DNA of 35,391 nt from a virus. Taxonomy: Duplodnaviria; Caudoviricetes. Both the position numbers and the translations under genes were made by a program. Below, piece by piece: positions 8,984-19,270 of the stretch. Numbering within the stretch: position 1 is the stretch's first letter; every line of letters starts with the position of its first letter. The notes under the pieces are model-generated. The model saw nothing but the letters and a program-made list of their open reading frames with translations, ran no database searches and was not told the origin of the DNA. The stretch is taken from IMG/VR virus record IMGVR_UViG_3300031748_000007, positions 1 through 35,391 of that record. One strand, given 5' to 3'.

Positions 8984-9593
8984 CGCGCAGCTGCCCGACC
9001 GTCCCATACCGGCGCACTGGTGCACCAGCCAGGGGCGGTGGTGTCGTAAGTTCTGGGTGCTGGGGCCGTGGTGCCTGCGCGTTGACGGTGCGCCCAAGCT
9101 GCACGCGCAGCTGCCGTGCCCGCAGCTGCACAGCACCGTGGAGCCCGCACGGGCCGTTGTGGCGCGTCTACAGCACAGCACGGCCTGCCGGCACCTACCC
9201 GTGGTGGCCACGGGCTTAGACGGGCTGCAAACGCCCCTACAGGCCGCAGCGGCGCTCGCTGGCGCAGCCTGGAGCGCCCGCAGGTACGGTACCCCCACCA
9301 TGCTGGACGCGGCTGGCTTGACGGGCCGCTGCCCCGTATGCGGGCGGGCGTGCGTGGTATGCGCCGACCCGGCTGGCCCGCCGGAGTGTCGCATAAACGG
9401 CTACTGCGTGGTGGCGGAATGGCACGTGGCGCACTGCGCGCCGTGGCTGGTTACGTGGAGTGTGGCCGACGCTGCGGACCCCGGCGGCCTGACCACACGC
9501 CGCTACTACCAGCGCCGCATGCGCCACCCGGACACGCCGGAGCCCCTGGCCGTGGTGCATAACCGCACACAGTCCCGTGCGGGTGGGCGTTAG
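8838..9593 (+). CDS. Hypothetical Cys-rich protein (start uncertain)
   Basis: Fills the gap before the helicase; CPVCGRAC motif; no clear RBS. Confidence 0.4.
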   Translation: MKRRNSLPAAPASTSPRASGGPVLPPTLTRVARPRSGGQSLGPVPFRIDAQLPDRPIPAHWCTSQGRWCRKFWVLGPWCLRVDGAPKLHAQLPCPQLHSTVEPARAVVARLQHSTACRHLPVVATGLDGLQTPLQAAAALAGAAWSARRYGTPTMLDAAGLTGRCPVCGRACVVCADPAGPPECRINGYCVVAEWHVAHCAPWLVTWSVADAADPGGLTTRRYYQRRMRHPDTPEPLAVVHNRTQSRAGGR

Positions 9594-14657: not shown

Positions 14658-15727
14658 CGATGCGGAACGTTGACTGGCCCGCGTGGCTGGCCACCGTGGT
14701 GACGTTGGAAAATACCGACGGCACCCGTGGCGCGGACCAAGGCATCGTGGTGTACAACTGCCCGCTGTGCGGCGACACCCGAGCGCGTGGCTGGGCCAAC
14801 GTGCTGCGGCGCAGCGCCGGTTGTTTCAACGCCGGCTGTGAGGCGGAACCGTACCTGTCCGGTGGACTGTACACGCTGGTGCAGCGGATGGAGCAACTGC
14901 CCGACCGTGAAACCGCCGTGCGCTGGGTGCGCGACCGGTACCTGCTGCCGCCCGGTGTAGAGCCCAGCGCCGCAGGGGGGTCGTTTACACGCCCCGTGCC
15001 CCCAGCCTACTTGGACTGGGCTCGGTGGCCACCCCGGTATGCACTGCTGCTGGACGCGCACCTACGCAGCCTGGCAGCGCGTCCATACGTCAATTTTGCC
15101 TGGCGGCAGTGGGGCCTAACGGCGCTGGACCTGGTGGGGGCGGGTGCGGCGTTCGGTGCGCGGGGCCGGTACGCGCACCGGCTGCTGTGGCCCATACCGG
15201 GGGCGGACGGTGCGCCCATTGGCTTTCAGGCCCGCACCATACGCGCTGACGGACAGCCCAAGTACCGCACGCATCACGCGGGCGCGTTCGACGACCCGGA
15301 CGCGGAGGCTGGCCGACCCGTCGGCGCTATGGTGTATGGCATGGACCGGCTGGCCCGCCTGCCCTACGGCGCGACGCTGGTGATCGTGGAGGGCATAGCC
15401 GACGTGCTGCGCCTGCGCACCGACCCGTCGTTCGACGCGGGCGAGCCGGTGGCGCTGATGGGTACGGAGTTGACTCGAGAACGCGCCGCGCTGCTGGCGG
15501 CGGTACGCCCCGCCCGCGTGGTGGTGGCGCTCGACGCCGACGCCACGGTGCGCGCCGCCGCTCTTGCCTTGGAGCTGGGCGCGTGGGGTCTGGGCGACGT
15601 TGTGCTCGGCCGATGGGAAGGTGGCAAAGATGCAGGCAGCGGCGCACGGTTGGTCGTGGGGCCGGTGCGAGGCGCGCGTGGCTTGTTGGAAGACGTGGTA
15701 TGGACCAAACTGCACGGAAGACTATGA
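14654..15727 (+). CDS. dnaG: DnaG-like DNA primase (Zn finger plus Toprim)
   Basis: CPLC...GCFNAGC Zn finger, IGFQARTI, PKY, IVEGIAD, VALDAD, KDAG; start is GTG 14654 or ATG 14660. Confidence 0.88.
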   Translation: MTMRNVDWPAWLATVVTLENTDGTRGADQGIVVYNCPLCGDTRARGWANVLRRSAGCFNAGCEAEPYLSGGLYTLVQRMEQLPDRETAVRWVRDRYLLPPGVEPSAAGGSFTRPVPPAYLDWARWPPRYALLLDAHLRSLAARPYVNFAWRQWGLTALDLVGAGAAFGARGRYAHRLLWPIPGADGAPIGFQARTIRADGQPKYRTHHAGAFDDPDAEAGRPVGAMVYGMDRLARLPYGATLVIVEGIADVLRLRTDPSFDAGEPVALMGTELTRERAALLAAVRPARVVVALDADATVRAAALALELGAWGLGDVVLGRWEGGKDAGSGARLVVGPVRGARGLLEDVVWTKLHGRL

Positions 15728-15820
15728 AGAGAGGCAGCATCCGGCCTGCGCCCTCTAGCCAGTGGGCCAGGCAATGTCCGCTGGGCGTCAGCAGCGGTTA
15801 AACCGGAGGGGAAGGAGAAG

Positions 15821-16111
15821 GTGATGGGAGCGACCGCACGCAAAATTGTAAAGCCGGCAGTCCGTGCCCGGTTGAAGCAGTGGTTCACGGTGCATGTGCC
15901 CACGTACCGGGCGTTCCGCCTGACCGCCATCGAGCGCGGCGACACCCTGGCCACGGCGATCCGCCTGGCGATGGAACTGTACGTCGAGCACAACGCCCGG
16001 TGGCTACGGTTCCTGGCGTCGGAGGTACCGCATCACCACATCGCGCGGCGCAGGGGCCGCGTAGACGCCAGCGAACTTGATGCATCAACCCGCGACAGCA
16101 CCGATAAGTAA
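15821..16111 (+). CDS. Small basic protein, possibly ribbon-helix-helix DNA-binding
   Basis: Strong RBS (ggaaggagaagg); QWFTVHVP..YRAFRLTAIERGDTLATAIRLAMELY fits a beta-alpha-alpha pattern. Confidence 0.6.
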   Translation: MMGATARKIVKPAVRARLKQWFTVHVPTYRAFRLTAIERGDTLATAIRLAMELYVEHNARWLRFLASEVPHHHIARRRGRVDASELDASTRDSTDK

Positions 16112-16202
16112 AAGACTTGGTGGTCGTCGGCGACCCGGTGACATTTTAGACTTAGCGGTCAACAGCTACGCGGTAAGTAGCGCGGTAGACCCCGCTAGGC
16201 CC

Positions 16203-16233
16203 TGCGGCACAAGGGCTTTGCGGCACAAGGGCT
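16203..16233. repeat. Tandem 15-bp direct repeat TGCGGCACAAGGGCT x2 (period 16)
   Basis: Exact copies at 16203-16217 and 16219-16233, ~50 bp upstream of a promoter. Confidence 0.85.
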
Positions 16234-16280
16234 GGCCGGTGGTGGTCTAAGTCCCCGGAATAACAGGGGTTTTTACCCCC

Positions 16281-16308
16281 TTGCCTTTGGCCAGGCAATG
16301 GCTAGAAT
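16281..16308 (+). promoter_or_regulatory. Sigma70-like promoter TTGCCT-N16-TAGAAT with an overlapping palindrome TTGCCT-N6-AGGCAA
   Basis: -35 at 16281-16286 and -10 at 16303-16308, in an AT-richer patch at the start of the long non-coding region. Confidence 0.6.
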
Positions 16309-16314
16309 ACTGGG

Positions 16315-17133
16315 TGCCACCGGCAAAGTGCCGGTGGGGCAGGGCTGGCCCGGTGGGCTGGCAGAAAGGCAGGTAGTTGGGAAAGCGATCAACGGTTGCA
16401 TACGGTTGGGCCTGTGAGCCCCGTGTCCCTCAGGAGTAGGGTACGCCAGCGGCGTACCGGCCCCTGGCGCAAAAGCCACGCGAGTAGCGCCAGGCCGACG
16501 GTAGACCGCCCGGCCCAAAACGCAGGTAGGGCACAGGGAGGCAGGGCAAGGCTAATGGCTGAACCCAACCGGCGGGCGACCCGCACGGTGCGCGCACAGG
16601 CGCACCGGGGCGGTGCATCGGACCCGGCCACCCCATAGGCTGTAGTTCAGGGGGGAATGGCGACAAGGCGAAAACGGACACCCGTGTGTGCTGCATTTGG
16701 TATCGGCGCAGGGCGAGCCCCAGGTGACAGCGGGGCGCTGCGCGGCGTAGACCCAAGGCGGGCCGGGTGGTGGAACCTAGTAATGCCCAAAGATGAGTGA
16801 GAAGTCGAAATTCCGGCCATGACTCAGAGTCAGCCCAAGCCCGCGTGTAACTGGCGCGGCATACGGGCTGCGCGGTGCGGCCTGGCCCGGTGTGCAACGT
16901 TGCACACCGGGCTGTGACCACACCAACCCCTGGTCCTTACAAAGACGCGGCGCGAGCCGCACAGGGCGTTCAAGACTGACGCAGGACGGTGGCGAAACCT
17001 TTGTTGAGTAGCCGCCCCTGCTAGTGGCACGCTGCGGGCTGACCCCCCAGCAGCGGTAGACCCAGCACCAGACACCGAGCGACCCAGCGGGGGTTGCCCG
17101 CACCCCTGAGTCATTACGTGCGAGGCCGGAATC
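16315..17133 (+). ncRNA. Putative large structured non-coding RNA (~820 nt), with its 3' end defined by hammerhead HH1
   Basis: No credible ORF. Perfect helices: 16317-25/16329-37, 16403-10/16564-71, 16440-47/16451-58, 16463-70/16487-94, 16586-93/16600-07, 16622-29/16761-68, 16829-36/17036-43, plus a 28-nt palindrome at 16885-16912. Confidence 0.55.
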
Positions 17134-17170
17134 TTCGGGGGCTGACCGCCCCGGACTGATGAGACAGGTC
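16804..17170 (+). ncRNA. Type II hammerhead ribozyme HH1 with a 278-nt insert in stem III; predicted cleavage after AUC 17133
   Basis: GUC(16804-06), GAAA, then UUCCGGCC pairing with GGCCGGAA(17124-31), UC, stem I UUC(g)GGGGC/GCCCCGGA, CUGAUGA(17156-62), GAC. The stem III extension AUGACUCAG(16819-27) pairs with CUGAGUCAU(17106-14). The 3' tail GGUC(17167-70) can pair with loop I GACC(17144-47) as a pseudoknot. Confidence 0.8.
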
Positions 17171-17188
17171 GAAAGGTGGTGACACTAC

Positions 17189-17287
17189 ATGCTCACGATC
17201 GTGGGTGCGTACCTTGGCGAAATGCTGTTCGTGTACGCGCTGTACAAACTGGCCAGCCGGCCCGTGCCTGCAAAGGCGGGCCGCTGA
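17189..17287 (+). CDS. 32-aa hydrophobic membrane peptide MLTIVGAYLGEMLFVYALYKLASRPVPAKAGR
   Basis: RBS-like gaaaggtggtga; lies between HH1 and HH2; hydrophobic segment followed by a basic tail; below the ORF-track size cutoff. Confidence 0.55.
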   Translation: MLTIVGAYLGEMLFVYALYKLASRPVPAKAGR

Positions 17288-17303
17288 CCGCGTTGACCCT
17301 GAA

Positions 17304-17378
17304 TGCCGATAACGGCGGGCGCGGGAGACCCCGCCGTTGCCGTGGTGGTGGCCCCCCACGGCCTGATGAGGCAAGCCC
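17304..17378 (+). ncRNA. Type II hammerhead ribozyme HH2 (GAUAA core variant); predicted cleavage after GUU 17338
   Basis: UGCC, GAUAA, CGGCGGG/CCCGCCG, UU, GCCGUGG/CCACGGC, CUGAUGA(17363-69), GGCA, AGCCC. Confidence 0.75.
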
Positions 17379-17424
17379 GACCAGGCAATGCCGCCTGGCG
17401 CACCCGAAGCGTCTGGAGATTCAG

Positions 17425-17652
17425 ATGACCCGCACTACTGTTCGCGGCAGTCGCCGCCTTGTCCGTACCCGTACCGAGTTGGCCCACACCAGCGGCACTA
17501 TGCGCGCCAAGGTGTTGGGTTTCGTTCCGCGTGGCCGTCGTGGCGCAACTTACGCGTCGGTTATCGCCAGCGCCCGTAAGGCTCGCATTCCCCGGCCTTA
17601 CTGCAAGGTCAGCAAGCTGATCGCTGGCGGCATGCTGCGGTACGCTGCGTGA
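17425..17652 (+). CDS. Small basic protein, paralog 1 (75 aa, putative winged-helix-like nucleic-acid binder)
   Basis: RBS ggag; MTRTTVRGSRRLVRTRTELAHTSGTMRAKVLGFVPRG...KVSKLIAGGMLRYAA; clearly homologous to 17779 and 18155. Confidence 0.85.
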   Translation: MTRTTVRGSRRLVRTRTELAHTSGTMRAKVLGFVPRGRRGATYASVIASARKARIPRPYCKVSKLIAGGMLRYAA

Positions 17653-17655
17653 CCA

Positions 17656-17724
17656 GCCGAAACGGCGCACCCGCGTGCGCCGTCGCCAGGGCGGTGGCAC
17701 CGCCTGGCCTGATGAGGCAAGCCC
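17656..17724 (+). ncRNA. Type II hammerhead ribozyme HH3 (canonical core); predicted cleavage after GUC 17684
   Basis: GCC, GAAA(17659-62), CGGCGCAC/GUGCGCCG, UC, GCCAGG/CCUGGC, CUGAUGA(17709-15), GGC, AAGCCC. All core nucleotides and three stems are present. Confidence 0.92.
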
Positions 17725-17778
17725 ACGGTGGGGACTGGCCCGCCGCGCACCCGAAGCGATTCTCCAAAGGGGGATCAA

Positions 17779-18006
17779 ATGTCAAAGGTTGTTCGCAAGG
17801 CCGACAAGCGCCTGGTCCGTACAGGCACCAAGCTGGCCCACACGGGCACGCTGCGTTCGACGGTCCTGGGGTTCGTTCCGGCGGGCCGTGGCGCGATGCA
17901 CAGCGCCGTGGTCGCCAAGACCCACAAGGCCGGCATCAAGTACCCGGCACAGAAAATCCACAAGCTGATTCTCAGCGGTGTGCTGCGGTACGCGAAGTCC
18001 GCGTGA
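17779..18006 (+). CDS. Small basic protein, paralog 2 (75 aa)
   Basis: RBS aaaggggg; MSKVVRKADKRLVRTGTKLAHTGTLRSTVLGFVPAG...KIHKLILSGVLRYAKSA. Confidence 0.85.
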   Translation: MSKVVRKADKRLVRTGTKLAHTGTLRSTVLGFVPAGRGAMHSAVVAKTHKAGIKYPAQKIHKLILSGVLRYAKSA

Positions 18007-18084
18007 ACCGAAACGGCGGGCCGCAAACCGTAGACCCGCCGTCGTCAGGGTGGTGGCACCCCCTGGCCCGATGACGGTAAGCCC
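18007..18084 (+). ncRNA. Type II hammerhead ribozyme HH4 (CCGAUGA plus extra C variant); predicted cleavage after GUC 18043
   Basis: ACC, GAAA(18010-13), CGGCGGG/CCCGCCG, UC, GUCAGGG/CCCUGGC, CCGAUGA(18068-74), C, GGU, AAGCCC. Confidence 0.7.
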
Positions 18085-18154
18085 CGACGCGCATGGTGCG
18101 CGCCGGCATACACAGGCACTGCGGTGGGACAGCCGCCGTGCTGTAGGAGGTACC

Positions 18155-18520
18155 ATGTCCGATACCAAGAGCACCGCGAAGACGACTGCCGCAAAGGCCG
18201 AGGCCCCCAAGGCCAAGGTCAGCAAGGCCAACAAGGCCACCAAGGGCAGCCGCAAGGCCAAGGTCAGCCGCAAGCACGACAAGGACTTCGCCCGCAAGGT
18301 TGCGGCAACCCGCAAGGCCAACTTCGGCAAGAGCGTCGCCCTCGGCGATCGTAACGCCGAAGTCGCTGGCGACCGCAAAGCGATCGTGAAGCTGGTGCCC
18401 ACCAAGGGCAAGATCGCGTACAGTGACCTGACCGCCAAGGCCAGCGAGAAGGACATCAGCCGCCCGAGCGGCAAGGTCCGCAAGCTGGTCGAGCGCGGCG
18501 TGCTGCGTTTCGTCAGCTAG
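18155..18520 (+). CDS. Basic protein, paralog 3, with a histone H1-like Lys/Ala-rich N-tail (121 aa)
   Basis: RBS aggagg; KAKVSK repeats, then DRKAIVKLVPTKGKIAYSDL...KVRKLVERGVLRFVS. Confidence 0.88.
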   Translation: MSDTKSTAKTTAAKAEAPKAKVSKANKATKGSRKAKVSRKHDKDFARKVAATRKANFGKSVALGDRNAEVAGDRKAIVKLVPTKGKIAYSDLTAKASEKDISRPSGKVRKLVERGVLRFVS

Positions 18521-18622
18521 TCTCCAGCGGCTAGCTAGCGCAACACCATGATGCGGCGGGGCGCGGTGGGCGTTGCCCGTGGATGCCCACCAACCCCCGG
18601 CGCGTGGGAAAGGAGAACAGCA

Positions 18623-18940
18623 ATGTCTGACAAGACCGAGCGGTGCAAGTGCGGGCGCGGCCTGCGCCGCGCAACTGCGGACCGCTACGAAAAGCCGGCA
18701 ATGGTGTGCGTCGAGTGCAGTTGCTTGCCTGCGTTTTGCAAGTGCAGCGACGTGCACGCCAAGCGGATGTGTGAGTCGTGTGAAGAGACGCCGGCCGAAC
18801 TGCGATTCACGGCATGCAACATGGACGGCACCATTCTGCACGACCAGGCCCTGTGCCGTGCCTGCGCCAACTACACCCCGCAGTTTGGCCACACGGTCAC
18901 GGTTGAATTCAACGTGGGCACGCCGGCCAACTGGGCGTAG
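18623..18940 (+). CDS. Cys-rich hypothetical protein
   Basis: RBS gaaaggag; multiple CxxC motifs. Confidence 0.75.
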   Translation: MSDKTERCKCGRGLRRATADRYEKPAMVCVECSCLPAFCKCSDVHAKRMCESCEETPAELRFTACNMDGTILHDQALCRACANYTPQFGHTVTVEFNVGTPANWA

Positions 18941-18961
18941 ACCCGGAAAGGAGAAGCGCAC

Positions 18962-19270
18962 ATGGCCAAGAAGCGCCGGTACGTGGTGCGCGTGGTGATG
19001 TTCAAGGACGAACACGCGCTGGACCGCAAGCCTGGCAACGTCAGCTTCACCCGCAACATGGGCACGTTTCTTGAGTGCCTGCGGTACGCCGGCCTGGTGA
19101 CCATACACCAGGACGACGGGAAGCACGTGACGTTCGACCTGCACGCACCACGCGGCCTGGATGACGCCGTATGGGCACAGCACAACGCCGATCGCATGCA
19201 GACGTTCGGCATCAACGCAGTGAAAGCGCCGGAGTGGTTGAACACCTACGGCGAAGACAAACCTGCATGA
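18962..19270 (+). CDS. Hypothetical protein
   Basis: RBS gaaaggag; tight gene packing. Confidence 0.75.
   Translation: MAKKRRYVVRVVMFKDEHALDRKPGNVSFTRNMGTFLECLRYAGLVTIHQDDGKHVTFDLHAPRGLDDAVWAQHNADRMQTFGINAVKAPEWLNTYGEDKPA

Follow-up and report, generated by a model that had tools for sequence, protein, structure and literature searches.

A split type II hammerhead in a tailed phage encloses a conserved structured domain and may form the 3′ end of a large non-coding RNA

Type II hammerhead ribozymes of phages and prophages (Perreault et al. 2011, PMC3088659; Rfam RF02276) are described as ending in stem II and as carrying a pseudoknot of at least four pairs between loop I and the 3′ tail. According to the same paper they occur in tandem before small variable genes, tandem phage copies cleaved in vitro, and loop III was opened for two-strand constructs, which indicates that this loop tolerates opening (PMC3088659). 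The purpose of phage hammerheads is called an open question in PMC6765202. The hammerhead analysed here shares the core, the open stem II and the pseudoknot with the ribozymes set out by Perreault et al., and, as in their phages, compact copies (three in our case) stand in tandem before small variable genes. Compared with the forms presented there, it differs in a stem III that spans 323 nt around a multi-helix domain instead of a short hairpin, in falling under the Rfam cut-off, and in ending a long conserved non-coding leader. In the open-access literature we found no account of a phage hammerhead whose halves enclose a structured domain.

Hammerheads with halves up to hundreds of nucleotides apart in one transcript are described for the 3′ UTRs of mammalian lectin mRNAs (Martick et al. 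2008, as reviewed in PMC2920678). As portrayed in that review, these use a bulge-loop contact and their spacer is unrelated, whereas the ribozyme analysed here makes its contact through a pseudoknot and encloses a structured, conserved spacer, in a leader on a phage contig that encodes terminase, DnaB-like helicase and primase. Theta (HDV-like) ribozymes beside phage tRNAs have been proposed to produce the 3′ ends of these non-coding RNAs (PMC10879173); as characterized there, they belong to another class and lie outside the processed RNA, whereas here half of the ribozyme would stay in the product and the window holds no tRNA. GOLLD, ROOL and OLE are large structured RNAs whose function is described as not known; GOLLD and ROOL are carried by phages, GOLLD RNAs are in many cases longer than 800 nt, and Rfam includes profiles of all three (PMC12286853). 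The RNA proposed here resembles them in being large and structured, but has no Rfam match and no tRNA island in its contig, and would be terminated by a ribozyme. The GOLLD, ROOL and OLE covariance models gave no match to it. Retron and defence-RT non-coding RNAs have an adjacent reverse transcriptase gene. This class was considered on account of the inverted repeat that bounds the insert; no such gene was found among the 44 ORFs scanned on the 35-kb contig, one phage protein of which is also present on a 102-kb contig.

Anatomy of the split hammerhead and its enclosed domain

The window, that is the whole stretch of 35,391 nt that was analysed, is a contig of a tailed phage with 65.6% G+C. 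Family matches among the scanned ORFs comprise terminase, two helicases, a DnaC-like loader, a DnaB-like helicase, primase and ArdC, and the ORFs taken as genes are all on the same strand. The 24 runs listed with positions 16250–18200 are all soil DNA, possibly from a single campaign. Behind the primase gene follows a 96-aa ORF and then a region, 16112–17188, in which codon scores reveal no gene-like ORFs: the two short ORFs in 16315–16803 score 0.04 and −0.35 bits per codon, and those within the insert are non-coding by the same measure. Both hexamers of the promoter-like site (Table 1) are identical in an 87%-identical relative, L164, with neighbouring bases changed, and we infer a transcription start near 16315. 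No terminator match was found between this site and 19000.

Table 1. Coordinates of the features in and around the split hammerhead (window positions).
Feature	Position	Strand	Basis or score
Sigma-70-type promoter-like site, TTGCCT-16-TAGAAT	16281–16308	+	sole match within 15700–19000; shuffle mean 0.2
5′ part of proposed ~820-nt structured non-coding RNA	16315–16803	+	non-coding, L164 covariation
Hairpin module (stem with AAA...GAGUA loop), copy 1 of 2	16463–16494	+	motif search
5′ half of the hammerhead (GUC of stem II, GAAA of the core, 5′ strand of stem III)	16804–16818	+	sequence
Closing helix (9-bp), 5′ strand	16819–16827	+	pairs with 17106–14
Enclosed domain, 278 nt	16828–17105	+	folding, L164 comparison
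Hairpin module (GAA...GAGUA loop), copy 2 of 2	16988–17016	+	motif search
Closing helix 3′ strand, 9-nt bulge, stem III 3′ strand, AUC triplet	17106–17133	+	sequence, L164
Hammerhead 3′ half: stem I, GACC loop, CUGAUGA, GAC, GGUC pseudoknot strand	17134–17170	+	family pattern
Ribosome-binding site and 32-aa hydrophobic peptide ORF (17189–17287)	17171–17287	+	0.49 bits per codon
Compact type II hammerhead 2 (GAUAA core variant, GUU triplet)	17304–17381	+	RF02276 28.4 bits, under cut-off
Compact type II hammerhead 3, ahead of basic ORF 17779–18006	17655–17727	+	RF02276 42.9 bits, over cut-off 37
Compact type II hammerhead 4 (CCGAUGA core variant)	18006–18087	+	RF02276 32.1 bits, under cut-off

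An earlier note on this DNA had proposed a split hammerhead with halves about 300 nt apart at 16804–17170. All elements are present at these positions, and a fitting 5′ half arose in none of 3000 dinucleotide shuffles of 16111–17123. The usual hammerhead position numbering is used (C17, A15.1–U16.1). Stem II, formed by GUC 16804–06 and GAC 17163–65, is open, and the core consists of GAAA 16807–10 and CUGAUGA 17156–62. The eight pairs said to join the two halves are there and are extended to nine Watson-Crick pairs in stem III (A16810–C16818/G17124–U17132) by A15.1–U16.1; the nine further pairs (16819–27/17106–14) likewise exist and continue the stem beyond a 9-nt bulge on the 3′ side. Stem I (17134–40/17149–55) has 7 bp including one U.G, and the proposed GGUC/GACC pseudoknot is found at 17167–70/17144–47. 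The stem III strands lie 305 nt apart, and the predicted cut site is 3′ of C17133 (C17).

The CUGANGA and GAAA boxes and a UH triplet are arranged around three stems, and the open stem II and the pseudoknot of at least four pairs between loop I and the 3′ tail are those of type II. At the level of sequence, 16804–17170 is thus confirmed as a type II hammerhead with core and pseudoknot intact. The feature that it lacks is a stem III closed by a short hairpin (RF02276 at 37 bits or more): with the 323-nt span, only its 3′ part is matched, at 20.8 bits against the cut-off of 37, and an Rfam scan of the whole window found the three compact hammerheads and missed this one. When 16800–17175 was folded, stem III and the closing helix had pair probabilities of 0.92–1.0; in the full-length fold model stem III was outcompeted (p 0.01). 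Single contigs cross the region with zero substitutions in two of the four DNA runs examined, and L164 has a diverged copy, so the split form is not an artefact of assembly. A local type III hammerhead using GAAA 17171–74 was rejected, as its stem III partner is absent.

The claim that the enclosed domain is structured holds: the insert folds with a z-score of −3.2 (0 of 200 shuffles as low), 16829–17043 reaches −5.4, and the domain is conserved in L164. The model comprises a variable hairpin (16831–70), hairpins 16883–914, 16933–46 and 16947–60, a module hairpin (16981–17021) and weaker ones up to 17097, with helix 16874–80/17098–104 likely closing the whole. All inner helices listed by the earlier note exist as sequence; however, GUCAGCCC/GGGCUGAC (16829–36/17036–43) and hairpin 16831–70 are mutually exclusive, with probabilities of 0.44 and 0.40. 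Of the 28-nt palindrome, L164 keeps a hairpin and not the perfect symmetry. The insert also has words that resemble twister and group I sequences; these were discarded, since Rfam matched neither and L164 lacks the twister-like one.

The note had drawn the unit too small, as RNA upstream of 16804 appears to belong to it too. A hairpin with an RAA...GAGUA internal loop, which we take to resemble a bulged-G (S-turn) motif, occurs only twice when both strands of the whole window are searched, once upstream of the ribozyme and once in the insert (Table 1); L164 has three, the third in the variable first hairpin of the insert. The promoter-like site, the covariation upstream (see below) and the module common to both parts together suggest a transcript of about 820 nt with its 3′ end at C17133, in which the insert would form the 3′ domain. 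The upstream part, 16315–16803, folds no better than shuffles (z −0.4).

Family size range and conservation in a relative

We collected matches to the same 3′ half by pattern scans, which gave at least 124 viral loci (about 150 estimated), 29 loci, and 31 in species genomes. Duplicates were merged, and 8 loci of the same phage and matches with less than 60 nt upstream were excluded, which left 150 distinct matches. Among the matches listed, 124 of the 150 resolve as type II. Stem III spans at most 32 nt (median 18) in 120 of these 124 and 53–55 nt in two, and it exceeds 200 nt in the remaining two, this phage (323 nt) and L164 (321 nt); these counts apply to the matches listed, and 44 loci of the scan with at least 124 viral loci had flanks of 300 nt only, too short for showing a long insert. 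The 29 loci come from a long-gap pattern, and among them the split form occurs in this phage alone. The 26 unresolved matches consist of chance matches and degenerate cores, together with one type III form, one CRISPR spacer and a few compact members that had been missed. Long spans scored for six other loci (L007, L028, L034, L038, L079 and L071) were artefacts, each of these loci having a local 5′ half. The split hammerhead is real, conserved and well beyond the size range of its family.

Some of the matches have features of their own. At L083:690–1260 a type III form of the hammerhead family closes a long, apparently non-coding leader, and on the minus strand of L048 a hammerhead with a 55-nt stem III span stands at the end of another such leader. 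Near L183:901–929, a CRISPR spacer of a bacterial assembly contains the 3′ half of a hammerhead of the same family. GAA follows the pseudoknot strand in 5 of the 101 resolved family members among the matches listed.

L164 was obtained by scanning metagenome contigs with an alignment of the basic proteins described below; the four loci found were three near-identical strains and L164. It is 87% identical to the window across 15920–17290 and keeps the split hammerhead. Stem II, the core and the pseudoknot are unchanged, at a divergence of about 21% at four-fold sites (22 of 103 differ in three ORFs). Within 17134–17170, 36 of 37 nucleotides are the same, the lone change turning the U.G of stem I into U-A. 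Stem III has lost one C and one G, i.e. one pair from both strands, and the closing-helix pair 16822/17111 is A-U in the window and G-C in L164. The insert differs at 24 of 267 aligned nucleotides and 16315–16803 at 39 of 485, both fewer than at four-fold sites (Fisher p 0.0024 and 0.00024). The untranscribed 16112–16280 is likewise slow (17 of 168), and low divergence alone is therefore no marker of RNA. A run of 92 consecutive bases within 16720–16815, spanning the 5′ half of the hammerhead and its immediate upstream, is identical in L164.

Covariation was assessed by predicting structures from the window alone and scoring them against L164, with 5000 controls in which substitutions were spread evenly, the real ones being clustered; the test draws entirely on two sequences, the window and L164, which is the one diverged homologue found. 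In 16800–17175, none of the 54 pairs with p above 0.9 is broken by a substitution and 6 touch gaps (control mean 4.9 broken; 15 of 5000 as good), and of the 92 pairs with p above 0.5 five have lost their pairing in this way (391 of 5000). This segment has one two-sided change, which is not significant by itself (591 of 5000). Among the 143 pairs with p above 0.5 in 16315–16800, four have changed on both sides against 0.32 expected, a count that none of the 5000 controls reached, and 9 pairs are broken against 15.4 in controls (37 of 5000). The inner pair 16475/16481 of module copy 1 is G-C in the window and A-U in L164. A free consensus fold gave 4 compensatory pairs against a control mean of 4.3 (77 of 119 controls as high). 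We discounted invariant long-range helices of 9–12 bp as evidence; 313 helices of at least 6 bp are possible in both sequences.

Further searches returned little beyond the phage itself. BLAST against a phage collection gave no match for 16100–18200 and two short weak ones for 16804–17175. Three patterns of conserved segments, run on viral contigs, found 2, 26 and 54 loci; apart from the phage itself, these were one chance match in a coding region, 25 loci without extension and 53 that lacked a profile match. Such a pattern found none in species genomes. Five distant primase relatives had no similarity to the proposed RNA. One distant relative, L162, whose primase is 38% identical, has five twister matches (one P1 and four P5) after its primase gene, at L162:7348–11883, which suggests that cleavage at the post-primase position is independent of the type of ribozyme.

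Possible roles of the ribozyme

On balance we favour, as probable though by no means certain, a reading in which the ribozyme generates the mature 3′ end of the large RNA and releases the message for the peptide, with the compact hammerheads dividing the rest. The host polymerase would initiate near 16315, the 278-nt domain would fold, and the closing helix would bring both strands of stem III together. Cleavage after C17133 would then free a structured RNA of about 820 nt from the start of the early message. The 5′ product (about 16315–17133) would terminate in a closed helix, and the 3′ product would begin with the stem I hairpin ahead of the peptide gene. The three compact hammerheads would leave products of the same form and split the remaining message. 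The insert would act as the 3′ domain of the released RNA, held in a loop directed away from the catalytic core, and would not be a sensor. What the released RNA does is a guess of low confidence; tentatively, it could be a protein-binding scaffold or decoy that works through the repeated GAA/GAGUA modules. A bolder version, which we consider doubtful, is a new class of large phage RNA with the ribozyme within its 3′ domain, in which folding of the domain would gate cleavage as a checkpoint and the RNA would then act in trans via the GAA/GAGUA modules and time the release of early genes.

The leader could instead work only in cis, in antitermination or in protecting or packaging a long early transcript, with the hammerhead as an ordinary first divider of the mRNA and the cut-off piece without a job. 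Tandem hammerheads around small phage genes are known, as reported by Perreault et al. (PMC3088659), the cassettes between the ribozymes vary among strains, and the one-sided gene orientation and the lack of a terminator match up to 19000 would suit a long transcript. We nevertheless regard this as unlikely, because it leaves selection on a 300-nt domain in stem III unexplained in a family where the listed matches so rarely exceed 32 nt, and because cleavage would sever the cis element from its transcript.

The earlier note proposed that the ribozyme may be gated, which we find improbable. Formation of the core, and with it control of the downstream genes, would then depend on a ligand, a protein or the folding state of the insert or leader. 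Allosteric control has been proposed for the mouse split hammerhead, according to PMC2920678, and a local rival fold does exist here: the core CGAA (16806–09) can pair with UUCG (17134–37) with p 0.79–0.86. This rival is kept in L164, and a stem I beginning with UUCG occurs in none of 100 compact members. The active fold is 6.4 kcal/mol less stable than the minimum-energy fold, and 6.3 in L164; the median for the 100 compact members is 1.6, with one of them as high. These fold models omit the energy of the pseudoknot and core. However, the modelled gap is the same 6.4 kcal/mol with the insert or with a tetraloop in its place. The CGAA/UUCG rival may therefore slow the ribozyme, but it leaves the insert uninvolved and does not make a sensor of it. 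The stem I change in L164 favours the active fold. No known aptamer or riboswitch family was found with Rfam at E up to 10 across 16100–17200, where the matches were chance ones of the hairpin type.

The competing helices on which the gating proposal relied did not survive closer comparison. Pairing of 16829–36 with GGGCUGAC loses two of eight pairs in L164, whichever of the two copies is the partner, GUCAGCCC having become GCCAGCCG, which is locked within a 9-bp local hairpin. The local pairing of GAC with GUC-GAAA cannot form as written, since only 2 nt separate GAC from GUC 17168–70. The suggested coupling of cleavage to translation is not borne out by the model, which leaves out pseudoknot and core energy: the ribosome-binding site does not become more open, with an unpaired probability of 0.53 before and 0.39 after cleavage. 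In the full-length model, upstream segments 16510–38 and 16572–82 capture the 3′ arm, as gating might require, but shuffled leaders also break stem III in 159 of 195 cases, and imposing stem III on the fold takes only 4.4 of 414 kcal/mol. We rejected this anti-ribozyme pairing because shuffled leaders break stem III equally often and because helices backed by two-sided changes occupy some of the same upstream bases; shuffles were as strong in 5 and 36 of 500 cases, with arms picked post hoc.

That the ribozyme rarely or never forms, as a slow or silent remnant or around a mobile element with 9-bp inverted ends in loop III, is very improbable: stem III is lost in global folding models, the modelled barrier is large and a perfect inverted repeat bounds the insert, as a miniature inverted-repeat element would have it, but every core and pseudoknot position is invariant in L164, the window has no second copy of the insert, no target-site repeat is visible by eye in the flanks, and the module is common to the insert and the sequence upstream of the ribozyme.

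The split form shows that phages contain hammerheads which enclose selected inserts of about 300 nt and score under the Rfam cut-off. A search for 3′ halves of ribozymes that lack a 5′ half close by could therefore reveal more such RNAs. As a hammerhead base-paired into a large conserved RNA outside Rfam, the present one marks a putative, previously uncatalogued RNA and suggests a testable role for these ribozymes, the formation of the 3′ end of a non-coding RNA.

Downstream genes and further sequence features

The 32-aa peptide differs by one residue in L164, has a best 19-residue hydropathy of 1.55 and gave no Pfam or PHROG match. With one hydrophobic stretch, a basic tail and a ribozyme on either side of its gene, it is possibly a small membrane protein. 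Hammerheads 2 and 4 precede basic ORFs 17425–17652 and 18155–18520; together with ORF 17779–18006 these encode three related Arg/Lys-rich proteins whose database relatives are nearly absent, the second having only 2 matches in each of two relative searches. Its model is winged-helix-like at low confidence (pLDDT 75), which could suit a protein-gated ribozyme, but a fold search gave no clear match (Foldseek E 0.98; best Z 7.0), and nothing links the basic proteins to the proposed RNA.

The cassettes between the hammerheads differ among strains (17290–18027; L164:1390–1760). Contigs from two runs have 453 different bases in place of 17290–18008, one contig links 18027 back to 17330, and L164 has an additional 112-aa Cys-rich ORF downstream of the peptide gene.

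The word GTAGAC occurs at 22 places on the plus strand of the window (e.g. 16185, 16501, 16747, 17056, 18030, 18937 and 25944) and at 4 on the minus strand. GTAGACC is found 19 times on the plus strand against 1.1 expected, with a strong strand bias and frequently beside stop codons. GTAGAC also lies within loop III of hammerhead 4 and has 7 copies in L164; it is possibly a protein-binding or recombination signal. A weak JUMPstart match at 9010–9045 scores 26.9 bits, under the Rfam cut-off. Two 14-nt direct repeats (16203–16232) stand upstream of the promoter-like site and downstream of the replication genes, and are possibly part of an origin or operator.
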